The notes under the pieces are model-generated. The model worked only from the letters and a program-made list of their open reading frames with translations. It had not been told where the DNA came from and did not search any database. The translations under genes were made by a program, and so were the position numbers. Shown one piece after another: positions 27,900 to 46,029 of a DNA stretch of 64,000 nucleotides (position 1 is the stretch's first letter; each line of letters begins with the position of its first letter). The stretch covers positions 7,130,001-7,194,000 of the forward strand of contig OZ281501.1 in assembly GCA_965637545.1 (NCBI GenBank). Reading direction: 5' to 3'. The stretch comes from Phallusia mammillata (lineage: Eukaryota).

Positions 27900-28067
27900 C
27901 ACAGCCGTCGACTGGTGATGGCCTAAAAATAACACCGCGCGACCGCCTGTCTGTATGCAAACTTGCCTTTTTCTTGTGTTTCAAGGCCGGTATATATTCA
28001 CAGCCCTTGCGTCCCAAGAGACAAGAACCGTCAGGGCTTTCTAGTCATAAGAGTTTTACTGTTTAAG
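27900..28067 (+). promoter_or_regulatory. Putative titin promoter and non-coding first exon
   Basis: MEF2-consensus CTAAAAATAA (27923-27932), TATATAT (27991-27997), donor AAG|GTTAGG at 28067. The next acceptor (28611) has a perfect TACTAAC branch point (28582-28588) and leads into the ATG exon. Vertebrate TTN likewise has a non-coding exon 1. Confidence 0.55.
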
Positions 28068-28784: not shown

Positions 28785-31700
28785 ATGGCCGAAAACCAAC
28801 GCTTTTTCAGTTCCTCCACCGAGATGAGTAGCCATGGCAACGTGGCCGAGATGCCGCTGGAGCCTCCCCGCTTCATCCAGCCTCTCCAAAGCGTCGTTGC
28901 TGTCGAAGGAGGGTCGGTTTGCTTTGAGGCAATTTTAACCGGTAAGGGAATTTTATTTTTGTTTTTTTTCCAACCGCCTTTTACGTCCCGTGTATTTCGC
29001 TTATTGTTCCACTAAAAAGAAATCTGTTAATTAAAAACCAATACCAATCCAGATGCGCAAAAAGTTTGTAAATAGTGTTGCTGGTGTTTTTATTTTAAAT
29101 GAAGAACAACAATTAAACATCCAATGATACTGTTATCTAATTATTATTATAAATCCAAAAACATATTTTGTAAATATTATTTTCATTTTTTCTCATAATT
29201 TTAACAGATATTTTCTACTTATTTTTAAAATTTATATATTTTTAGTTTCATCTTTATTTGGTTAACTTTTAAAGTCGGTTGGGTGTACAAAATAAATACT
29301 AGAAAAGTGCTTAAATATGCACCTGAAAATGTTAACGGCCGTTTCGTCATTGCAAATGTTACATAACAGTTAGCCAAATATGGGTATCCCCATACATGTG
29401 GCATATAAAATAAAATGCAATTTCGTACAGGCTTCCCGAGACCCGAGGTACGTTGGTACCACGGAAACGATGACGTCACCAAGTCCGTCAACTACGAAAT
29501 CTCTTACGGAGTCGATGGAAGAACGAGTCTTCACATCCCAGAAGTGTTTGATGAGGACGCAGGGCAGTTTGTGTGCAAGGCGTTTAGTGACCTTGGTCAA
29601 GCGTCCAGCACCGCTGAGTTGGTAGTACAAAGTAAGTCTGATTGATAATTGTCACTGCAAAGCATCGTTGCTCATATATTTTTCACAATCTTGAGGTAAA
29701 TAAGCGCCCTAATAGTTATTTGTTATACGTATAATTATTATACGTTTACTTATATATACAAGGCACATAACAACAAACACGAAACAGATCCAAAATTGTT
29801 TTTGTTTTTTTCCTAAATCCATTTTTTGTGAAGAACTTTTTTAACATACAGCGATTTGCTGGGTTGTTTAAATTAACACGCCATTTCCTAATTGGAAATT
29901 CACTTTTTAACATTGTGTCCAAACTCATCTATACTCAAGTGCCAATGATCAATTGTATCCTATAAAGGTGTTAATAACACCGATATAATTATCATGTATT
30001 TAATTGTTAATAACCTTTTGTATCTTCCTTACAGCTACCACGGTGCCACCAGACTTCATACTGCGACTTGCGAACATCACAGTGGCACAAGGAACACCCG
30101 TGTGTTTCCAAGTACGAGCATCTGGCATTCCCACTCCACGTGTAAAGTGGTATAGAGAGGTGAGATGAACAACAGATTTTGTTCACACTCAGTCAAATTC
30201 AGTTTGCTTCTGTATGTTGCCTTTACCCCTATTCTATACCACAGGGACAGGATTAAACTGCAGCAAGACTGCCTATTTCGCCAAACCTACATAACGATTT
30301 AACACCAATCCATACATTAAATTTGCTTTGTATGCCCTTAACAAAAAAAACACTTAAATTTTCTATTTTTTAACCCTCAACTGCCAGCGAAAAACGGTTC
30401 TAAATTTTCAATTGCCCTTTTCCCCGTAAACTATCTCTGTTTTACCAAGTTTCATCCCAACTTCAAAACTAGTAAGAAAACAACATAATACACATTTCAA
30501 CTTCTTTATCGTTTTGCAGGGAGCCGAAATCCGCAATTCAGGCGACTTTCAGATTCGTTGCGAGGGCGATCTGTACAGTCTTACTATTGTGGAAGCTTGC
30601 GAGGAAGACACCGGTCGTTTCACAGTCACTGCATCAAACCAGGGTGGAAAGGCGACCTCCACAGCCGTTCTTACTGTCTCCGGTAAGTGGGAGACGCTGT
30701 GATTGGTCGAGAACCGTCACGTGACTTTACTAATTGTAAAACAATGCAACAACGTCGTCACAAGCTCGTAAAGAAATTTTAGGCTTTTATAAATGGGTTT
30801 TTACATGTGTAGGAGACGAGTCAGTAACGATCGGTCGTATGGATATGGAAAACCAAACTGGATTAGACCAACGTCAAATGCTAATGACGTCACGATCAGA
30901 ATTGGACGAAATGTCGGCTGTGAAGCGGGCGCATGAATACGAGATGCAAAGGACGTCAGTAGCACAGGTATATACCACACATGGTGTATTACGTCATAGT
31001 TGATGGAGCAACACTTTTACATCTTTGAAGTCATTTGTTCATTAGTTGTTTATGAAAAACTTTTCTAATCGACGTTTTAAATGTGACGTCATAAAATCAA
31101 CACTTAAAAAGACGTTTTTGAAAAACGTAAATTAAATAAATGTTGATGACATAACGATGACGTCATTTTATAACTGTTTTAAATTTTAGTTGGATAAAAA
31201 ACAGTTAGATAAAAAACAATTTTAGCTCTTCTGTATGGCGACGTATATTTATTTCTTTTTTCAAATTTAGTTTTTTCAAGATTTAAAATTAAAAACAACA
31301 ACATTTGTATGCTCACGATGACGTCATTTTAAAACTGTTTCGATTTTTAGGAACAGAGAACCGGAAGCGTCAAATCATCGGAAATGTCAAAAAGCCAGAC
31401 AATGAAAACCGCACAAAAGCAGACGAAAGTGAAGGCGGGAATTCGACGACAAAGTCCTTCACCAATCAGAAGTGTCAGAATGAGTCCACCTGTCGTAAGT
31501 TGAAAATCTACAACTTAACCATTTGGCAACAGGCAAGTATAACCACGGTGTAACATTGCAGCTTCGAAGAAGCAAATCACCAAGAGACAAATCAGCGTCT
31601 CCAATGCGTAAAGTCCACAGTGTACAAGCTCCTTCACCTACACGCAAACAACAACCGGCAACTCCTACCACTCCGGTTCCTGCACCATGGAATATTGAAG

Positions 31701-34700
31701 ACGTAAGATTAATACCGCGTACAAAACCGACATAACAATGCTATTTGATTCTCCAAAACAGCGGTCCTTCAATTTTTTCAATCACCAAGTTGAATCCGCC
31801 CCTCTGTTATTTTTATGATGGTGTTTTGTGCCGTACATTAACAATAATGTTTTTTATTCGATTGAAACTACTGACCTTTCTGATTACACAATCAGATTTA
31901 TAAACTTACATATTTGAGTAAAACTTCAAACCACATTTTAGGTAGAATTTCCCTCTGCATGTACATAATTTCTCAGTTACGAACCAGTGCTCTAAAAAAA
32001 CATGTAATGCTTATGTTTACAAACCAAGGCCATTGAAAGTTGTAAACATACTTAAATGCGTTTTTTTGTATCTTTTCAAACAGAGCCAACGCCGAATGAT
32101 GGCGAGCGCTAACAAGAAAGAAACAGTCACCTTGGAAGCTGGACAAATGCAAGAGGTAACAACTCACGAATCCTTCCACAATACTGAACAGTCCTACTCA
32201 GAAGCACAAAGCTTTGAGTGCAAAACAGAAACCATTAGCACCTACGAAAGCTCTGAGCAAATCAAATCAAGCGAAAACCTAGCGAGACAGGTGCAGGAAT
32301 CATATGTTGAGAGCAACAGCCAAAACGTCAGATGCGTCAGCGAAAAGCTGTCTGCTAAGTCATCATCCATTAACCAATCAGCATCTGCCGTTTCATTTGC
32401 GTCATCTACATCATCATCATCACTTGAGAAGCCCCCGGCACCGAAAAAGCCGTTTGTGGCCCCAGTTCGGCCAGTGGAGCCCCTGAATCTTCGTCAACCA
32501 GATGAGACAAGAGCAATTGCTGGCGTCCGACGTGTTAACCCGCCATCTTCACAAACTAAGTTTATTTCACATCAGCAGGTTTGTGCATCTCATGCATGTA
32601 TTTTTTCTCAAAAGGTTAATTAACTTTGGTTAAAAAGCTGGGTAATGGTTGTTGTAATGGTGGTTCTTTGGCATAAAAATATATTTTATTTTCCCTTACA
32701 GTCAATAGCACAACTTTCTTTTTATATTTCACCATCGTTTAACATTATGTAGCAATAACACCCAATAATCATAAGTACGAATTATAAACACCCAATTGCA
32801 CTAAAAGCTACACTTTAAGGCATGAAACCTTAACAACGTAATAAACTATATGAAAAGGACACAATCTAATGAACCACAAAATTCCTATGTCCCGTTTCAT
32901 GATCGTTCACAGTCGCGCCGCCTTATCAAGTCTATCGCTTCGTCAGGGCTTATCGAGCACCTATGGGAGTTATTTCAGGACTAATCGTCATGCAGTGGTA
33001 TGAACCGGCGCTCTGGGCAGCTGTTGCGTTCATTCATTTACCGAATGGCAAAGCTGGGATCGCAGACTGATATAAGCGTGCTGTGCGACATTAGAGTGAT
33101 GACGTTTGTTTACAGCCACTGTGATAGTTATACTTAAAGATTGGCATTTATTAGAAATATAGGACCCAATCAAAAGGCTATGTTTAATTCGTATGAACAA
33201 ATAAATACACCTAAATTCTCTACAGTGTCGTCTAAAGTCACCCCGTTACAAATTAACCCACCCTTTTCTTTGTTTAAATTGAACTATAGCACACTTTTTG
33301 CAGCAAAATAAGACATTTTTGTACAAAACCGTTGACCTGATTGGAAATTTTATACATCCACTTGCTTTTTCTTGGGTGGGCTTCTATTGAAAATATTCAT
33401 TTACTTCATTTCAAGATTTTTTCATTTTTGCTTGTCACGTGATCACATTGCATGTTACGTCACCAGGTCACAAGCACCGCTGTCACTTCGCATGACGCTG
33501 AACAGACTTTAGAAACAGTAGCACAAACCACTGAAACTGAAGAGGTACATACTGAGTGATTGGTTAGACACTTGTATAGGTGCTAAGCTCAAATGCGCTC
33601 AACGCGTCATAATCACTTTAATTGATTTTTAAGCCATTCAAAAGTTTTTATTGGTAATTGATAAAATAAAGCAGTTCAGTTATGCGGTAATTTTAAATTT
33701 TCACTCAAAATGCGAGTTAGTACGATGACTGATTTTTTCCCAGGGTGTTGCCACCTACCCTCCATTCATAAAAACCGGAATGCAGGACATGGAAGTAACA
33801 GACGGCGAAATGACTATATTGCAATGCGAAGTGATGGGAAATCCCGTTCCACATGTAGCTTGGTACAGAGAAGGTAAAAATAACAAACGACATACAACCA
33901 GTTACTCGACATAAACATTCCTATTACGTTTTTTAACCATTTCTGTTTGTCGTATAGGATCGGTGATCGAGAGTTCTCACGATTTTGAAATCACATACAA
34001 TGGACAAGTGTCGTGCTTGCTCATCCGTGAAGCATTTGCTGATGACGCAGGTCGCTTTACATGTTCCGCCACCAATGAACAAGGAACCACTTCGTGCTCT
34101 TGCTTTCTGAAAGTAAGACATTTCTACCATTGCACTTAGTTTATGAGCTTCTATGTGTTAAATTGTAACAAAACCATTTTCCCTAACGTTACCCATAGAC
34201 AATATCTTTAAACCTTTCCTCTTGGTTTTGTGAATAGCTTGCCTCTGTTAACGTTAAAACTACGTACATAAAAAAGTTGCCGACTTTATCTATGCTCTTT
34301 TTCAATTAGGTAAAGCCAGTTGAACAAACTCCCAAAGCTGGCAAACTGGAAAGGAACTTATCTGCATCTGAAACTGAATTGTCAATGACCGATTACGATG
34401 GATTTGAAAGGTAGCAACTGTTTTTCTTTCTACACCATTGAACGCTTTCAACTCATAACACGTTTATATTTTCTATTTAACAGTACCGAAGCTGAACTTG
34501 ATTTCGTCTCCGGTGTATCAGAAGCTGAATTAACAGATACTGAGTTAACTAAGCCCGCCCAGCACGCTATGGACGGCCAAGACCTTTCCTACGCCGGGGC
34601 GACTATGCTTTCCCCCGTAGCTGAAGAGACATCGACACCATCCGGCAAATCACCAGAAAAACGCGCACCGCAAGAGGGAGCTACGGCGTACGCCAACGGT

Positions 34701-37700
34701 CAGCCACCGCGATTTGTTAAGACGCCGGCTAGTATGATGAAGATGGAAGAAGGGTCAGCGGTCAGACTTGAGTGCGTGATCGCTGGCGTTCCCTCTCCAC
34801 AGGTCACTTGGGCCAAAAATGGCGCCTTGCTGCAAACCAGCCATCGCTTCAAAGTTATCGAAGATACAGAAAGACGTAAGAAAATACAATTTGTTATTCT
34901 GTATTGTCGGTAGAAGGCTTTAGGCGTATCGAAGCGTCCTTATTAGTCTGTTTGTTTGTTAAATTTGGGCCAGGTCAAAGAAATTGGATTGTCCAAAAAA
35001 AGTTCAAAAAATACCCCCACTTAAATTGTCCTTATACCATAAGAAACGAATTGAACACGAACGGGCTTATGTATTTTTTGAATTCAATACGCATACAAAA
35101 AGGTTGTACAATAATCAAAAACAGGTGTTGGGGGTTATAGGAATTTTTGCACTTACTTTTATTGAGCCTTGATCTATTTATTACAGACTTATACTGCCTG
35201 ATGATCACTATGGTTTTCCCTGAAGACGTCGGCGAATATACGATCACCGCAACTAACCAGTTTGGTTTCATTAGTGGATCTGTCATGCTTGTATCTGAAG
35301 GTGAGTCATTTCCCAATTGAAAGCAAGCAAATTAGTTTTATAGTTTCAAGAAATCGATAACGTAAGCAGTAAATTTACTTGAGTGTCCGATGTATTTACA
35401 ATTTTGTTACCCGCTTTTGAGATGAGGTGATAAAGATTACTATTCATATTTGCCAAGTATTGGTTTCTATTTTTTTTGTCATTTCTCTTTAAAATGTAAA
35501 CTGTGATGTGATATAATGTCTTGCTTTGTTCCGAATGTATAACTTGTCTTGCTTGTTACAGAACATTACCAGCGCTTCCAGGAGCAGGACGCTATCGACC
35601 GACAGTCGGCCGATGAAGACCGACAATCTACCGGAACACCAACGGCACAAGCTTACTTGCCACCGCGAGGAAGAGGGACATCTGCTTCAAGGTGTCTAAT
35701 AGGAATGTGAAAAAAATATTAGAATTGCGCATCTTTTGACATAAATATCTTAAGAATAGATACTTGGTTAATAACTAATATTAAACTTTTGACACGAATT
35801 ATTTTAGAATAGTTTTAACAACTTATCCTCCTGTGTAAAGTACAAAACGGTTTCGATTTTAGCCATTCTAAATTGGCAGAATAAAGTAATTACATATTCT
35901 GAAATTCCATTTTGAAAAACTTAAAAAATAAATTAAACGGCATGAATTAACCTAACAAATTATGCAGCAAAAACTATATAAATTATCTCATACCTTTTTT
36001 ATAATACCCTTCAATGTAAAGTGTAGCTTTTTAAATCAAACTTTCAACTCAGGGGGCGTGGCGACCGCAGACGCGGTATGACGTCACCGGGCGGTAAATC
36101 CCCCGGAGATTTGCGCAAGACCAGTTCAAGTCCATCGAAACGACTTCGCGAAATTTCGACATCCCCGATTCGTGGCGCTTCCCCATCCAAGCGTCTGGAC
36201 GAGCTCGACCAACTAGACATCGAGAAATACTTCAAGTATGTAATGTGGTGTAAAATAGAAATGTCTGGAGGTATTCTTTTGTATGGTTTATATGAAGGTT
36301 TATAGCTTTGTCTTAAATGTACAATATTACGGAATTTCAAATTAAGGTGTTTTTAAGTTATGCAATTTTACACATTACTGGTATATATAGTTGGTGTAAA
36401 ATATCGGTTACAAGACATGTTATAAGACACTTCAAATTTAAGCACTTATTCAACTATTTAATTATCTACTAAAGCCATTTTGATCTAACATTCACGAAAA
36501 TGTCTATGTACCTATAAAACTTTTTAGTAATTTAAACCGGGTTGCTTGATTATTAATTTTGTTCCTGGGAACTTTTAATTTGTTAAACAAGGTCACAAAA
36601 AACATACGTGGCTTTAACAATGTAATGTATACATACATATATTTTATTTCAGGCCAAAGTTCTTGAAGAAACCAGAAAACTGCGAGTGCAACGAAGGCCA
36701 AGCGACTCGCATTGACTGCAAAGTGACTGGAAGGCCTTTCCCTGATGTGACTTTCTACAAAAACGGTAGGTCGCATGCAACACAGCGCCCAGCCATCAGG
36801 GTTTTTGTCATAAAATGGCAACATAAGGCCCAATCCTGTTATGTATTTCCAATGTCGAACCATTTACAAGTAGTACCCAAAGGCGTTCAAAATCTTTAAA
36901 CGAAAGGAAAGGCTCTATCCCTTAAACCGGTCAAATGTAGTTCGATTGCCTTTACTATACCCACAGCGTCTCCTTATGACTTTTTACCCGCCAGCCGGGT
37001 CATGGCATTTTGGTGCCCGCGTTGACTTTCGTCGACATACACCAAAACAACAACACCCCAACACACACATCAAACACAGGTGATATTTTTACACCGCCCG
37101 TACCTTGTTGGTCCTCAGAATGTCTTTTTAGGGTCATAGAACCTCAGTACACGATCGCTGGCACCGCCTTAATAGGTAGTGTCATATTTTCCGGTTCCTT
37201 TGTTTCTCGAGCTTATGATAGCGCCAGCGTGACAATGTACGATTTGCTATGCCGCTTGTACTACACACATTGCCAAGCATTGTAAGCTATTTGGGCCCCG
37301 GTACGCGTGTAAAATACCTGTCGTAGGCGTTTTTCGACACCAAACTTAGGTTTCCTGATGTGGGTTTTGTGGTAAGGCGAGGTGTTAGTTCCTGGGTGCA
37401 ATAATTAGTGGCCGTACGATATCTTCTGAAAAAATTTTTTTTTTAATGTCAAATAGGATTTACAACTACAGCTCTCACATTTCAAAAACCTTACAGCCAC
37501 CGCAAGTATAATAAAACCAGTTTAATTTTACCCTATATACCCGCACGACTTTTCTATCCGTCAGTGCAAAACATCTGACAAGTGCCAACAGCTGACAAAC
37601 GTGGTTTAAGCCAAAAGACCCTCATGGTCGGTGTTGCGATCTTATGTGCCCTTGCCGGTGCAGGGTTCCCATAACTTTTCCCTGCTTTGCGGCCTTCCTA

Positions 37701-40700
37701 GAGAAGCACGCACCCATCATAACGAGAAGTTTGCGGTTATATCAAGCATCGCGAAAGAAATGCGGCTTATGTTTCGAGCGTTTGAATCTCGGCTTTCACT
37801 TGCCGCGTGTTCTTTTGTCTCACGGTCGCATTGTTTGCGAACCTCTCGTCGAGATATGCGATTGTAGTTGCCAAGCGTCCCGAGGTCAGATCCCTCTGCC
37901 ATAAGCGCTGATGTTTTAGTTTTGATTCCACCAGTGTCAAAATAATACGAGAGTTTAGTCGTAAGAAAGGTAATAAATATATTCAGCCCGTCATATCAAG
38001 TGTACAGAGTATCAGCGTAAGAGGAACGTAATAACAGGTTGTATAGGCTGGTGGTATTGTTTGCGGGTCAGCGCTTGACAATGGCACACCGTTCTGTGCT
38101 CGTATCGTCCAGCAAAACATGACAACAACAGGCCGCATATGCTATTGTCTTTTTACGCGACCGCCAAAGAAGGCCTTACGCGCGCTCAGGCTCAATTGCC
38201 ACTTGATTGGGGATAATTTTGCGACGGATTTAAGGCCCCGAAGTGCCAACAAAACAGTTGTGAATACACCGGGCCCAAAGGGTGAAATATTATATCTGTT
38301 TGGAAGATAATTGTGGCGTTAATAGGATGTCCGTTGAAAGTGAGACGGAATCACAATCAAGTAAGTGGAAATAATTGTATTGATTATTTGGGACTAACAA
38401 CAATGTCGAATAAGACTATTCCTGCGTAAAACTGGGTCATAAAAGTTGTTAATGCTGCTTCAGTGGCAAACGACAACATGCGCACAGTTTGTAAACTTTT
38501 ATGCGGTCTACATCATGACTGTAAAACTTTACAACCTAATAATGTACGCCCCAATAAAATTTTGCCACTGTTTGTACAGCAGCATATTGTATGCACAAAT
38601 TTATCGCTTTTTGCAGTAAAATACCGCATTAGTGGCACAAATCATTTAAACTGCTATAACAAAGAATGTACATAGCATTTACTACATGTTAAGGTTTTTT
38701 TTGAACATATACGTACGTTGGCGATAGCCTTTACCAAACTTACATAATACTCGCTAAGTATCAAATTTAGAGTACATGGCTGGGCGCCGAATGTAACGTT
38801 TGTTCACAAGAAGAAGCGTAAAATGAAACACATTATGCTGCTGTCAAGGGCACAAAACCCATTAGTGTGTAATGTGTAACTAGTGGTCATTATCCCCTTA
38901 TCTTTTGCTTGTTCAAAAACGATAATCAATAAGCCCACATTATAATGCGACACAAAATCAGCGTAGTTGTCATCCAGCAGCCATAAGTCATCGTTCGTAA
39001 TCAGCAAAGCAAGAAAATAAAGCAATCCCGCTGTTAGTTGGCCCGAATTGCAACGCAATCAAACAACAATGCGCTTTATTCCTGTTGCGTCTTTTGAACT
39101 TGTTTAAAAACTCGGCGCCATTATTACACTAATAGCCAAAACGACAATGCCCCAAACCTTGCGAGTGGCCCTTCATCTTCTGTGAGGGCGCCGAGCGTTT
39201 TTGCCCGCACTCGCTATGTTTCGAGTGCCATAACTCGACATTGTTTTTCGAACAGACCCGTGAATCGTCTTTGGGAGTGCGCGTTTTGGGTGAAAGTAGT
39301 TTTACAGCTTGTTGTGCGGTAGCTTGTTACAACACATGCCAGTGCTTGTCAGTTTGAGGCTTTGGGTTCGATTGTGATTAACACAAGCGCTGATGTGTTT
39401 ACAATAACAAAGTCTTGTAAGCAACGAAGTTTAAGGGCAAAAAAGTGATACAATTAGAAAGCACAGTTCCGCTTTACACGATTTGCGGTTCTAGAGCAGT
39501 ATCTAAGACGGTACTTAACTATCGAGCACTGCGAAAGGATAGGTGTTTTAGTTTGCAAATTGCACACTGGGTGTACAATATAACTTTCTCGATACAGAAA
39601 CAGTTTTCAGGCAGTTGTAGTCAAGCCAAAAATCGGGTTCCGAATGGTTTTACAGTGTTTGTTGTTCAGCAGCGGCCCAAGCATCCTTCGGATTACCAGT
39701 GTAGTTACCAACTGCCTTGTAAACCAGGTTAATACTATGTTTGTTACCAGTCACAGCTTGTTACCCTACACACACGAGGCGCCCATAACAAGTATGATTT
39801 AAGGCCGGGCAAGTCCAGACCCAACATAGTGTTACACTGAAGGGCCTCCATGCAGGCTTCCGAGTCAGAAGGCAATAAATCCCGCGTTTGTGTACACTGA
39901 AGTAGCGATATGTCGCGGAGCCACCAGCCCGAGGTCGCGGTCGAACACCAAAAGCTGACCAGCGTCAATTTACGTCGGGGAATTCCCGAAATCGTGAGTG
40001 GTCCGCCGTCGCCAAAGCACTTACGCTCGCACGGGCCTATGAGAAGAAAGCCCGGTGCAAAATTTGGAAGCTTTATGAACGAGATACTACATGCAACTAA
40101 AAATGATAGAGATATCCCATGCTGGTCACTGGAAAGCGATTCTAAAGCTGTATTGCCGCCTATACCGTTTAAAGAAGTACATGAAGACCAAGTAACAAGC
40201 ACTGATTCCGATTCTGGGTATAGAAGATCATTTTCAAGCGATGATCGTGTACCGACAGCCCCTGAAACACCGTCAACCTTTTCGGGTCCGCTTGACCACC
40301 CGATAAAGATTGATTTGATTCAACGTGCGACAGAAAGAATCACTACAATGAATCCAACATTGATTAGAGACCGTTTAAGTCAGAACCCAGTATTGAAAAC
40401 TAGTCTTGGTATCGGAACGTGCCTAAAGACCACAGTTAGTCCTGAACCTGTTCTACCCAAACCCACACAGGCTCCTGTTCATTTAACTGGCATAAACAGC
40501 CTTGGTGACCTTCGAAACTACATGAAAGATAAGCGTTTACATAAGAACAAACTCCCTATGACAACACACAAAGAGGCCACAAATAAGCCTTTACCCAAGT
40601 CCAATGGCATTTCTCACACAACAGTTCCAAATGACAATGAATCCCAAAGCATTGCCTCTGCACCTTGGTTAAAGGCCGATGTACATATTTACGTGTGTGT

Positions 40701-43700
40701 GTACTCCAAAGGCAAGTTACTTTAAGTGTTTGTTTGTCTAACACTTGAGGGGCTTTTGAAGGCACTGAGTGCTAGTTGTACTGGGATGTATCGTAACAGC
40801 TGTATTTGATGCTGTGCTTTCCCTATACCGATGTATTGGTCATTGAATTTATATGCATTTGCAACCGCAGTGTAAAACTGTATGCCTTACCATTACCACG
40901 CCTGGCAACTTAGTTTTAAGCCTACAAACTATTTTTCCAGGTTCCCAAGTATACGAGGATTTCAGCCATCGTATTGTGGTAAAGGAAGACGGCGTTCGTT
41001 CTCTCATCATTTCACCAGCACGACCTGAAGACAGCGGAGAATACACGGTGATAGCGAAGAGCGCCGCTGGAAAGGCCATCAGCACAATGTCTCTTACCGT
41101 CATCCGTAAGCAAATCCTTTTCTGTTGTAAAGCCAACCCTAAATTTACCATTATTTCCCTGTTATGTGTCAAAACATTGGTTGATCACTCAAACTAAATT
41201 TCATGGTTTAGGGATTAATGTAGTGTTGGTCAATTCTAAAACTTACAGAAACAAACAAAATAGTATTAAATTGTTACTTTTCGTTCCCGGAGATGTAAAT
41301 TTTCTCTCAAGAACCACTTATAGTTTAGTTCTTATATTCCATTTATGACAGCCCTAAATATTGTAGCGTGTTTAATATGTTTTCACCCCAAGACAATTTA
41401 AGCTGCCTTGAAAAAAAAACACGTTTGTATTTTGGCCCAGTAATTCCAAAACATACACTTTATCCCACGGTAAACTTATTTCACTGAAGTTTACAATTAC
41501 ATAACCAAACAACTACAATTTCAACAGCACAAGAAGGTTTGGAACGACCCCGAATTCTCGAAAAACCACAGAGTGTATCGGTGAAGGAGGGTGACATGGT
41601 CCGTCTCGAGGTGTTTGCTGTTGGGCGTCCAACACCTGATATTGTATGGCTGAAAGACAATGTCCTACTGATCCCCGACAAACACCCTGACATGAGGTAA
41701 CATACACAGTGATGCCTTGTACTGTTACGACTGCCTACATTTCCACCACTTGCTTTAGGCTTAGATCCGCACCATATAGGCTATGCCAGGTTGTCATAGT
41801 TACTTAATACTTCTTAGTATGTATAGTTATAAAATTAGTATCAGTTTCAAATTTAATCTCACAAAAGTTAGATTTGTAAGAAAAATCCATCAATTTCAGT
41901 AAAAAATAAATAAAAACATTTTTTAAATTTATTCACATTGTGACGTCACAGGATCGAAGGCGTTGACGGTCACGGCCTGCTGACCATTGAGCAAGCTAGC
42001 AAAGGACTTCATGATGCCTGGTATACTGCAACTGCCGTTAACAAAACCGGCAGAGACTTGACAAGATGTAAAGTAAATGTGGAAAGACTGGACAGTGCAC
42101 CTGAACAAGAAAAACGCTTGTACATCCCTAAAGCAGCGAAGAAAAGACTGCCAGTGGAGCCTTCACCTGAACGCGTTGACCTGAGAAAGGTTTGTATAAA
42201 ACGTTGTATATCAACCGTGAGTCCCTGAAAACAATTTTGTGAGTCCACCACACGACATGCAGAAATATTTTGTAAACCATTACTGATACATTTTAAACGT
42301 TTTCATTTACTGCGAATGGATAATCTGGGGCAAAAATAAGACGCGACCTACAAAAGGTTGGGGAAAACTGTTTGAAAAACGGTTAAAACAAACTTAAGAT
42401 TTGAAGCAAACAGTGCAGTTAAGGGGTTCAAATTCTGGACTTATCATGTCATTAACAAAAAGTATCATGTCATTAACAACCAATACACCTTATGAAAATA
42501 CAAGTTTATTGGTTTGAACAGTTTGCATCAAAGTCTAAACCCTAAATACATGTAATATTATACAATAGACGACAATCCGTTTTCTGGTGCATTTGCGGAA
42601 TTAGGGTAACAAGGACTTTGTTTTTAGTTGGAAAACTTTGACGAGAGTGACTTGTACGACTCCAGCAAAATGCAGAAACCACGCATTAAGAAGAAGTTGG
42701 TCTCAGTGAAGCAAAAGATCTTGGGAGCTGCACACTTCGAATGTCATATTGTTCCAATCGGCGACCCAACGATGAAGGTACATATCTGTTTAATGTTGTC
42801 AACTAATTTTACATATTGTCGATTCTAGTGGGCAAGACAAATTTGTTTTAGACATTTTTCGACAATGTTTGTGATTTTTCTCTGTCCATACGGCACGTAC
42901 GTTATCTTTATCTCAAGTAAGATTTACTCTCGTGTATTTTCTGCACAAATACGTTTGTTTAAAAAGATCATTACCTGAAAATAATAGTGGTTTTACGCTA
43001 CGAACTTACAATTAGATAAAATCAAATCCAATTCCATACAATCATCACAGCGGTCTCTCACAATCAAGATCCTTCGTTAAAAATTCCTTACCAAAACAAA
43101 ACTGCTTATAAAACGGTTCAAAATTGCTTCCACCAATGGAGCATCAGTCAGACACTATGCTAGGGAGTCCCAAGGACAGTTAATTTGGGCGTCAAAATAA
43201 ACTTGCTGGGCCAGCTCCAGCCTGTCATGTAAAGAGTGTCACTTTGAACAATCGCAGGTGGAGTGGCTTCTAGATGGAAAACCGCTCGAGTACGCCAACC
43301 GGATTATGACAACATTTGAGTTCGGTTATGCTGCCCTCGATATCAGCGCCGTCTACCCACGAGATACGGGTAAGTTCAATATTGGATAACATGAAGTGTT
43401 TTAACTCGCGTTTATTATAAATTATGGGGTTAAATAGCCTGTTTAGTTTCCCAAAATCTATGTTAGGTCAAAATACGGTTACAAATACGGATAAAATGCG
43501 CTGTTTTGTTACTCAAAATAAAACAGAAACAGTTAAGTATTGTTTTGTAGACAGATAAGCATAATACCATCCATATATTTATTAAAAAGCATGCCTATCA
43601 CCACATAAATGTATAAATTTGCATCCGTTTTCTATATTACACAGCTGCAGTAAATAGAACATATCCATTGACAATTCTGAATGATCAAATCATTTTGAAT

Positions 43701-46029
43701 AAAAATTCCTGAGTTATAAGCAACTGTGGTGCTAAAAATTTCCATTTTCGTGCAACAGGTGTGGTGAGCTGCAGATGTACCAACTCGCACGGTCAGGTCC
43801 AAAGCTCGTGTACTCTCATCGTGAAAGAGGAAAAGGGTCTTGTCGTAGGAACCCAACTTCCTGATACTGGAAAACTTGAGAAGATAAACACTACAGAAAA
43901 ACACAGACAAGCGGTAGGATACCTACCATAAAAATCATAATTCTGTACAACCATGAAGCTTATAGCAATAAAATATTTCAACTTAAATTTACCCCCATGA
44001 GACTACTGCGTTAAAGAAACCCAGAAAAACTTAATTTAACTTCCAAATATACCAAGGGGTAAACGTGGAAAAATAGGTTTCGAAACGTCAATTTTATGAT
44101 AAAACTGCTGGAAGAGCAATATTCGTTTATACATTATGCAATAGCTTATTTATAAGTTTGGACTATTTACAATAAACAATAATTTGAACAGTTCGATTTC
44201 CAAAAATATGAAATTTTATGTGATATTTTTCAGCTTTCACTTGCTCACGATCACCCTGAAGTTGACGACACTGAAGTTAGATCGGCTCCTAAAATCGTCC
44301 TGGCTCCTGACGCACTTCGAGTCCAGGAAGGTGAACCTGCCAGGTTCCGTGCACGCGTCCTCGGTTCTCCACTACCTAAGGTCACATGGTATCTGAACGA
44401 AACTTCAATCCGACCAAGCAAACGGCAAGTCTTCAATTTCTTTGTATCAATACGAAAAAGTTCTAGACAACTAAAATATTGATATGAATCTTTGCGAAGG
44501 CAAAAATGTATGCGTGTCGTTTTTAGCGAGAAAGGCGAATATCATTTTACGGTCACATTCAATCGTTCTATATAAATGGGGAGCTAATAAAAGAATATCA
44601 AAAAAGTAAAAATAAAATCAACGACAGATATTTGTATTTTACTGTGTTAAAACGGCCATTTTTAAGTATCAAAGGCGTTTTATATCAAGATGAGAACAAA
44701 TTAATAGAAATTAAATTACAATTCCATCTTTGACTATGTATGATTAAGCAGAAAAGCAAGTACTATTATTATTTTGCAATAAAAACAGGAATGTCAAAGC
44801 TATTCAATAACAACTTTGTATTTTTCGCAGATTCCGTATCTGGTCCGATGGAATTCATTACTTCGAGATTGCCACAGTTCGCGGGTACGACCACGGTACA
44901 GTGCGGATGGAGGCTGAAAACATTGAAGGCAAAACCGAAATCACAGTAGCCATCGAGGTTTGCCAGGCTGAGGACATGCGCTCTGTTTTGCACAAGGCTC
45001 AAATACCTAAGGGCAAAACCGATGTGAAGACTTCTCTCGACACCAACACCCTAAAGCAATACCGCATCAATAGAAATGTTGAAGAACAAGTCCGAGGTAT
45101 GTGATTTCTATAGTTCGCTGCAACGTTTTTGAAACAAAACCTAAAACAAAAAATTGCAGCAAAAAGATTTTGTGAGGTATAGCTTTTCAGCCTTTTTCTC
45201 CTAACGAACTGAAGTACCATAAAGTGGCCACATTAGCTCGTACGGTCAATGCCACCAGCTGCTGCACTGATGAGACCTTACGGGTTAAAACAGTGTGTAC
45301 TGTCTGCAAAAACGTTCAAAAAACTTCTCCCGTAGTTTCAAACGATTTTTATATTGCGAGGAATTCAAAGGTATCGATTAGAATTGTGACAAAATCTTTT
45401 AAATGGATTTTCTGTTTTGTTGCAGAGGAGAAAGGCAAACAGATGATCACTCTTCGTGAGGTGGAAAAGCCAATCGCCGGAATCAAGAAATTGAATAAGG
45501 TTGAACGACACGAAGAACTGCAGTCGAAATTTTCCGAACTCTCGGAAGAAGAGCGAATGCTTAATAAGCTCGAGGCGGACAAGAAAAAGGTTCCATTAGT
45601 TCCAATAACATAGATAAAATGGCTAGAATGGACTATAGCCTCCCGCGACGTATATGTAAAGCAGTTTTATTTTATCAAACTCGTTTTTTGTTTATAATTT
45701 TCCTAACGTTATATCAATGCGTGAGTAATTATTGTGTATAGGCTAATTGGTTAAACAAATCTTGTCCATGTATTTTTTTTAATTTTCCCCGAACGTGTGT
45801 CAAATTTCTCCATTACGACAAAGTACACAATTATTTTTACTCTAAACAACGTCCACAACTCAACAACGTTTCGTAGAGTTCGAAACGCGATCGTCAGTAC
45901 GAGTCCTTCATTCGTAAAACAAAAGACGAACTTTCTCATTGGGAGAAACCACCTGAGCCCGAATCACCTAAACTTCCCTTCTTAAGGCGACCCCGAGAGT
46001 CTCTACCGGCCCCGTTTATAATAGACCAG
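28785..46029 (+). CDS. TTN: Titin, Z-disc region (Z1, Z2, SP-rich inserts, further Z-disc Ig domains, linker to I1); multi-exon
   Basis: Exons: 28785-28941, 29431-29631, 30035-30159, 30520-30682, 30813-30967, 31351-31494, 31562-31702, 32084-32578, 33467-33544, 33744-33873, 33958-34112, 34310-34410, 34484-34875, 35187-35300, 35562-35691, 36053-36235, 36653-36765, 40941-41105, 41528-41696, 41952-42189, 42628-42777, 43258-43369, 43759-43913, 44234-44424, 44831-45096, 45426-45589, 45877-46029. Titin-specific matches: PRFIQPLQSVVAVEG (Z1), GAEIRNSGDFQIRCEGDLYSLTIVEA (Z2), DAWYTATAVNKTGRDLTRCKVNVE, AHFECHIVPIGDPTMKVEWL, YESFIRKTKDELSHW. Confidence 0.95.
39910..40711 (+). CDS. Candidate alternative first coding exon of an internally initiated titin isoform (267 codons)
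   Basis: A 271-aa ORF in an otherwise ORF-poor 4.2-kb intron, with an in-frame TGA four codons upstream of the ATG. The AAG|GCAAGT donor at 40711 is phase 1, matching the acceptor at 40941. Confidence 0.6.
45261..45308 (+). ncRNA. Degenerate hammerhead copy (GAAA changed to AAAA) in a titin intron
   Basis: GCUGCA CUGAUGA GACC uuacg GGUU AAAACAG ugugua CUGUC UGCA. Confidence 0.6.

Follow-up and report, generated by a model that had tools for sequence, protein, structure and literature searches.

A spliced, probable alternative 5′ coding exon within the split fifth immunoglobulin domain of a titin gene from Phallusia mammillata

The titin locus and the host intron

The stretch analysed here (the window) comprises 64,000 nucleotides (nt) of Phallusia mammillata DNA (assembly GCA_965637545.1, contig OZ281501.1, positions 7,130,001-7,194,000, forward strand) and carries the 5′ part of a titin gene, in which the intron that splits the fifth immunoglobulin (Ig) domain holds a long open reading frame (ORF) spliced to the titin exons behind it. 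An earlier reading of the same DNA (the original prediction) had proposed an internal first exon at this place and a titin isoform lacking the Z-disc anchor. Positions below are those of the window unless marked otherwise, and feature coordinates are collected in Table 1.

The canonical 17-exon model contains four Ig F-strand motifs and, followed from the ATG at 28785 to 36765, is free of stops and encodes 1000 residues with four complete Ig domains. The exon halves of Z1 and Z2 match residues 31-99 (expect value, E, of 9.5e-20) and 141-195 (E 8e-19) of PDB entry 1YA5, and canonical joints from 35689 onward are present in contigs of the sequencing runs described below. The canonical exons upstream of 35562 total 2575 nt and two long canonical contigs have 2723 and 2694 nt, so that the canonical message begins about 120-150 nt before the Z1 ATG. 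In the gene model, a 43-nt intron (31495-31537) is required for an open frame in the Z2-Z3 linker. The shared exon beginning at 40941 matches its best protein relative, the Ciona savignyi fragment H2YNK4, at 85% and a second-species contig, L022, at 83%. Further downstream on the same strand, tblastn with H2YNK4 and a motif scan of the window plus 200 kb found tandem Ig domains, FN3-type motifs, a kinase-type motif and further Ig domains; the FN3 and kinase assignments are presumptive and motif-based. Judged by its sequence, the locus is a full titin gene, with a Z1-Z2 pair, I-band Igs, an FN3-rich A-band, a kinase and M-line Igs.

The features of the intron on which the original prediction was built, namely its size of 4.2 kb, relative GC richness, position inside one Ig domain and a 271-residue ORF with a stop just before its ATG, are all borne out. 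At 4175 nt, it exceeds every other intron of the model between Z1 and 45096 (26 in all, the rest measuring 43-888 nt; the gaps further 3′ in the window are without exact models). Its GC content is 43.5% compared with roughly 38% in the window, and it divides the I-set domain between Pfam positions 1-37 and 44-90. The ORF runs from the ATG at 39910 to a stop at 40725, 267 residues of it preceding the donor (hereafter the head), and an in-frame TGA lies three codons 5′ of the ATG. The donor at 40711 (AAAG/GCAAGT) is of phase 1, like the donor at 36765, and fits the exon at 40941 as had been claimed; the spliced chain from 40711 through eight shared exons to 45096 has zero stops. The GC donor at 44424, equally part of the original prediction, is required by this frame and used in RNA contigs. 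An open frame of 274 codons in any of the six frames arose in 1 of 1000 simulated introns, and 270 open codons in the single required frame have a probability of about 2-3e-6. Two further statements hold in part. The predicted cluster of E-boxes (CANNTG) near 37572-37594 is present, with three of them within 23 nt (an arrangement that arose in 22 of 1000 simulations), but the 18 E-boxes of the whole intron are about the chance number and no DNA matching the cluster was found in L022. The head, described as rich in P, S and T, does have 267 residues up to the donor, but with P+S+T at 29% the enrichment is modest only. A MEF2-like site was seen at 27923, upstream of the canonical Z1 start, and none in the 4.2-kb intron.

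Transcription, splicing and conservation of the exon

Four sequencing runs were compared over 35400-45100, namely X1, X5 and X12, from three studies, and the DNA run X10. X1, X5 and X12 are not on record as RNA; their contigs skip introns and therefore derive from spliced RNA. The region from 39.2 to 40.7 kb is transcribed, with contigs covering the coding part of the exon, and is joined in frame through a GC donor to the exon at 40941. The joint (40709-40939, with three ambiguous letters) occurs in X1, X5 and X12, its sole canonical cut is 40711/GC..AG/40941, and X10 contains no splice joint. Both the junction and the expression of 39910-40711 implied by the original prediction were thus found. 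Contig depths in X1, X5 and X12 are 15, 11.8 and 17.5 at the alternative joint and 42.6, 11.7 and 22.7 at the canonical one, values that are not isoform ratios. Of 18 small runs listed, 10 contain 0.56-0.79 of the words, 3 contain 0.07-0.16 and 5 contain 0.00; low word shares are no evidence for tissue specificity.

The alternative contigs start at 39211 (X1), at 39664 (X5) and at 39710, with a separate piece at 39432-39619 (X12). No upstream joint into the alternative exon was found in the three spliced runs, nor a loose end among those listed, and in the canonical contigs the donors 36235 and 36765 each lead to a single acceptor, without an alternative joint. The transcribed leader contains 7, 6 and 19 stops in its three frames and so cannot be an internal coding exon; it also holds 7 upstream ATGs, each opening 2-52 codons. 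Given these stops and the missing upstream joint, the exon behaves as the 5′-most coding exon, and by contig behaviour it is 5′-terminal in all three spliced runs. A low-depth, joint-free piece at about 38000-38330, present in run X1 only, is either unspliced precursor or a farther 5′ leader.

When metagenome contigs were scanned for the shared exon, three loci emerged. Two of them, L023 and L024 (55% and 49%), proved to be distant Ig proteins without the head. The third, L022, is an orthologous titin stretch with the exon order of the window, its contig ending short of the canonical upstream exon. When the window, L022 and C. savignyi are compared pairwise over 109 residues of two constitutive exons, identity is 86%, 86% and 84%. 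The proportion of synonymous differences (pS) between the window and L022 in these exons is 0.77, with synonymous sites saturated, so that L022 comes from a distant species, on these comparisons likely another tunicate.

The corresponding intron of L022 holds a 309-codon open frame ending at the donor CAAG/GCAAGT, again of phase 1 and 141 nt before the acceptor, and the orthologous head frame (L022:3012-3941) is found by tblastn at E 3.6e-12. The two heads align with a Smith-Waterman score of 140, while 1000 shuffles gave a mean of 33 and a maximum of 56. Across 176 aligned codons, pS is 0.85 and the corresponding nonsynonymous value (pN) 0.45. Three blocks account for 31 identical residues out of 46, 22 of them despite a synonymous codon change. 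Elsewhere in the intron no DNA-level match to L022 was significant, the best (E 0.052) lying at the exon end. The GC donor at 40711 is retained in L022, whereas the one at 44424 is GT there. The frame conservation that the original prediction would entail is therefore present, and frame, donor, phase and the three blocks are all kept in the second species. Because the protein is conserved across saturated synonymous sites together with the same donor and phase, selection is acting on the protein encoded by the head.

Table 1. Features of the titin locus around the alternative exon (window coordinates)
Feature	Position	Strand	Basis
Canonical titin coding exons bypassed by the alternative exon (Z1, Z2, linker, Z3, Z4, Ser-Pro linker)	28785..36235	+	17-exon stop-free model
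Canonical exon, first half (strands A-C) of fifth Ig	36653..36765	+	Pfam I-set positions 1-37; joint 36765-40941 in 3/3 spliced runs
Intron hosting the alternative exon, 4175 nt, GTAGGT..CAG, single genomic copy	36766..40940	+	
CGTCA and three E-boxes, possible muscle enhancer (candidate)	37559..37594	.	Sequence motif
Transcribed 5′ leader of alternative exon, minimum extent	39211..39909	+	Contig starts in X1, X5, X12
Coding part of alternative exon, head of up to 267 residues	39910..40711	+	RNA contigs; orthologous frame in L022
Conserved block 1, residues 97-113, DSGxxxS degron-like motif	40198..40248	+	L022 alignment
Conserved block 2, residues 194-207, beginning of predicted short helix 198-210	40489..40530	+	
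Conserved block 3, residues 253-267, WLKAD and hydrophobic strand-like tail adjoining half Ig	40666..40710	+	
GC-AG intron of alternative isoform, 229 nt	40712..40940	+	Joint in 3/3 spliced runs, 0/1 DNA run
Shared exon, second half (strands C′-G) of fifth Ig	40941..41105	+	Pfam I-set positions 44-90
Constitutive GC-AG intron	44425..44830	+	GC donor at 44424 required by frame, used in RNA contigs; GT donor in L022

The head, the hybrid domain and rival explanations

At E<=1e-3 the head has no homologue among the candidates compared, 812 of them longer and 197 of similar length (proteins of up to 2000 residues, with giant titins beyond the range), and Pfam gave no match. In an Atlas search the whole head reached 0.77 at most, and residues 185-267 matched nothing. 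Of 1.84 billion representatives, one tandem-repeat protein matched the head over 21 residues, a match rejected as spurious. Across 264 kb of the locus, a profile built from the head picked up no other copy (next best E 0.025). A transposon-fragment identity was also rejected, since the protein and the intron DNA each have one genomic match, that is, a single copy, and Pfam shows no mobile-element domain.

The head is predicted to be disordered, AlphaFold giving low-confidence models with a mean predicted local distance difference test (pLDDT) value of 38.7 from the single sequence and 41.7 from two sequences. The only segment above 50 in both models is the helix at residues 198-210, overlapping block 2. 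Block 1 reads DSGYR(R/K)S in both species, one residue longer than the six-residue beta-TrCP consensus DSG-hydrophobic-X-S; it fits the DSGXXXS degron variant that is cited for USP47 (PMC10487276). Block 3 consists of WLKAD followed by alternating hydrophobic residues and ends at the junction. The invariant valines of this block, at -4 and -6 relative to the junction Gly, align with the V and F that point inward in the normal strand DVTFYKNG, and a conserved Trp sits 11 residues further upstream.

Several observations weigh against reading the ORF as the translated start of a long titin. The contigs reveal neither start site nor strand, so that they fit an internal promoter as well as another non-coding exon or spliced-leader trans-splicing, which is common in ascidians. 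The alternative contig extends just 31 nt into the shared exon, and linkage further 3′ is therefore inferred. If the leader begins at 39211, all 7 upstream ATGs precede M1, and the first 87 residues of the head fall outside the local alignment with L022; for both reasons the start codon is uncertain, and the head may begin at M1, M44 or M56, giving 212-267 new residues. Three of the four variants in the ORF are residue-changing (N-H, N-S, I-V) compared with none of four in constitutive exons, two being in one contig only. The synonymous codon bias of the head, -0.09 bits per codon, is non-coding-like (four other titin-region exons range from -0.07 to +0.09). The conservation is seen in one other species, and the three blocks were chosen after viewing the alignment. 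Lastly, the tail adds no Ig profile score: of 30 shuffled tails 5 scored higher, as did 2 of 15 windows taken elsewhere in the head, and in L022 the hybrid reaches 23.6 bits versus 24.7 for the half domain. The residue-changing variants, weak bias, upstream ATGs and unaligned start are what one would expect of a disordered region that evolves fast around a few short motifs under constraint.

The fate of the fifth Ig domain bears on one of the rival explanations, in which the conserved tail and the second half-domain form a folded hybrid Ig and a stable fifth domain is retained. Conservation of block 3 right up to the junction, the register of its valines and the upstream Trp speak for such a fold. 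However, the canonical exon supplies I-set positions 1-37 and block 3 only 15 residues, and strands A, A′ and B are absent from the hybrid. With a profile of 11 other Igs of H2YNK4, the half domain scores 27.9 bits; with the tail added, as the hybrid, it reaches 28.9 bits over profile positions 28-80 with an 11-residue insert, and the normal domain has 42.2 bits over positions 4-80. With no gain from the tail in either species, we regard a folded hybrid as unlikely. The conserved tail in register favours the partial repair of the split Ig that had been proposed, and the missing strands and the profile speak against it; full repair has no support from these comparisons, and the tail may instead cap the half Ig with one strand.

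It is likewise doubtful, though conceivable, that the exon opens a short I-band-only product, the head and a few Igs closed by an alternative terminal exon, which would make it a small scaffold and not a giant titin. The shared contig is just 1915 nt long and ends 468 nt past 45096, large exons, among them one of 4931 codons, follow downstream, and vertebrates have a short titin, Novex-3, terminated by an internal exon (PMC9648829). No terminal exon for a short product was identified, however, contig breaks arise also at splice branches and allelic differences, and the frame is open across all 8 shared exons tested. It is very improbable that the RNA is mostly non-productive, from a leaky intronic promoter, or that the ORF forms a gene of its own or is what remains of a transposon. 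The head without relatives or Pfam match, the weak codon bias and the mostly residue-changing variants would suit this reading, as would the fact that unspliced read-through would end 2-4 codons past the donor in both species; yet the protein-level conservation at saturated synonymous sites, the shared donor and phase, the single copy and the RNA contigs skipping the 229-nt intron oppose it. An independent single-exon gene or transposable-element fragment, the alternative named in the original prediction, is likewise at odds with a single-copy exon spliced into titin. The least probable of these readings makes the ORF an internal cassette or mutually exclusive exon of a full-length titin that keeps Z1-Z4. 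AG sites at 39902 and 39905, just before the ATG, are in frame for the phase-2 donor at 36235, but a joint of the 36235-to-399xx type is absent in the three runs, the contigs continue 200-700 nt upstream of these AGs, no pyrimidine tract precedes them, and the AG opening the L022 frame has a different phase.

Other features of the region lie apart from the alternative exon. Helical, spectrin-repeat-like exons occupy window positions 1-26000 (+), immediately upstream of titin; four of them have no spectrin match in Pfam, and by synteny they are presumably the CCDC141/SESTD1 part of the gene cluster discussed in the next section. A 46-nt high-copy repeat lies in an intron at 44093-44139, with a depth of about 4700 in the DNA run. 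From 59501 of the window to G000:C8:7204293 a single frame stays open for 4931 codons; its product has much T, Q, E, K and P and an Ig-like end, and we read it as a giant I-band exon, the first 1466 residues of which have no Pfam match. Titin's distal portion (A-band, kinase and M-line) occurs as two tandem copies (G000:C8, about 7.267-7.305 Mb and 7.309-7.342 Mb; L009-L016), the copies being 99.5% identical over 28 kb and containing two 2518-codon frames 99.93% identical to each other, which may represent a recent duplication or an assembly artefact. On the minus strand, an open frame of 1916 codons (G000:C8:7373964-7379711) resembles by its ends a retroelement polyprotein and is a candidate for one.

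Proposed role and comparison with known systems

Taken together, the exon is probably an alternative 5′ coding exon, spliced and constrained at the protein level, of an ascidian-like titin. An internal promoter likely drives it, and its head would replace about 1000 N-terminal residues. We are highly confident of a coding 5′ isoform and lean, with some reserve, toward its reaching the A-band, while the roles of the head motifs and the tissue are offered tentatively. We presume that the message has its own promoter, or acquires its 5′ end by trans-splicing, upstream of 39.2-39.7 kb, that the head is translated, and that the transcript continues through the I-band to the A-band and kinase. In the gene model, the exon would bypass Z1-Z4 and the first half of the fifth Ig, that is, some 1000 residues with four Igs. 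The claim of a titin without Z1-Z4 thus stands as a spliced, in-frame, protein-constrained 5′ coding exon that bypasses them, with its extent beyond the shared exon inferred. Overall, the observation behind the original prediction is confirmed and its interpretation partly supported, in its core.

The phrase "lacking the Z-disc anchor" draws on vertebrate knowledge, where telethonin is bound by Z1-Z2 and alpha-actinin by the Z-repeats (PMC3859903). Titin_Z gave no match in the three linker exons, and searches of the genome for it and for telethonin were blank, as were their controls. With telethonin and Z-repeats undetected in the genome, anchoring by the canonical form in Phallusia is itself unproven.

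If translated as proposed, the isoform would bind thick filaments as full titin does while being freed from the Z1-Z2 end. It would retain the Z/I-border Igs, and the spring and A-band as well if the transcript continues. The helix at residues 198-210 could provide a substitute docking site, DSGxxxS might act as a phosphorylation-dependent turnover signal, and the hydrophobic tail may be a strand that caps the unpaired half Ig short of a complete I-set fold. Such an isoform would most plausibly act in muscle without regular Z-discs (adult body-wall or siphon) or in assembling myofibrils. Ascidian body-wall muscle is described as lacking sarcomeres, tail and heart muscle being striated (PMC6589888). 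Because adult body-wall muscle is without sarcomeres, unstriated muscle is the natural guess, though a guess only. More speculatively, and we think rather improbably, tunicates may keep an old second titin whose motif-bearing head, with a docking helix of its own, a degron and a strand completing the cut Ig, replaces the Z-disc end and which serves the sarcomere-less body-wall muscle as a near full-length spring without Z1-Z2.

The exon would offer a handle on how titin-containing muscle works without Z-discs, by comparison of striated tail and heart with unstriated body wall, and as a single exon it is deletable or taggable in a tractable chordate. It presents three short conserved motifs, and it illustrates a blind spot of gene models, having a GC donor and no family match. 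In the literature searched (mostly open-access, by titles and abstract openings, without supplements), there is no report of the isoform, nor do the phrases ascidian, Ciona or tunicate titin/connectin occur; a prior mention or an existing gene model with the exon is possible. The C. savignyi fragment H2YNK4 has the same domain order and 86% identity over the two exons after the junction, and the entry contains the canonical form only.

Among known systems, kalirin/connectitin resembles the present case in that internal promoters divide an ancestral SESTD1-CCDC141-titin unit (PMC12198301); the starts given there are those of SESTD1, CCDC141 and titin, whereas the proposed Phallusia start lies four and a half Ig domains inside titin. 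UNC-89-C/-D of C. elegans likewise comes from a giant muscle Ig gene with several promoters, its small isoforms starting within a domain (partial PK1), but it belongs to the obscurin family and the M-line, the domain cut is a kinase, and the C-terminal end alone is retained (PMC4865318). Closest in logic is Cronos titin, the only internal-promoter titin named in the two vertebrate reviews consulted (PMC9648829, PMC7478974). The likeness drawn in the original prediction holds for an internal start in a titin intron, which is probable in Phallusia, an in-frame new N-terminus and loss of the Z-disc end (PMC4720518, PMC7478974, PMC9648829) but not for position or first-exon anatomy. Cronos, according to these sources, starts close to the I/A junction, in intron 239 and 110-257 nt before the exon, adds 7-12 residues and loses the I-band spring. 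The Phallusia exon, in contrast, starts at the Z-disc end, in the fifth Ig and over 50 kb before FN3 motifs first appear, is a separate exon spliced by a GC donor, contributes up to 267 residues, enters mid-domain, and would retain the whole I-band. Cronos, without the spring, is reported as unable to keep sarcomeres intact (PMC7478974, PMC9648829); a conserved isoform that keeps the I-band and swaps the Z-disc end would separate anchoring from elasticity.

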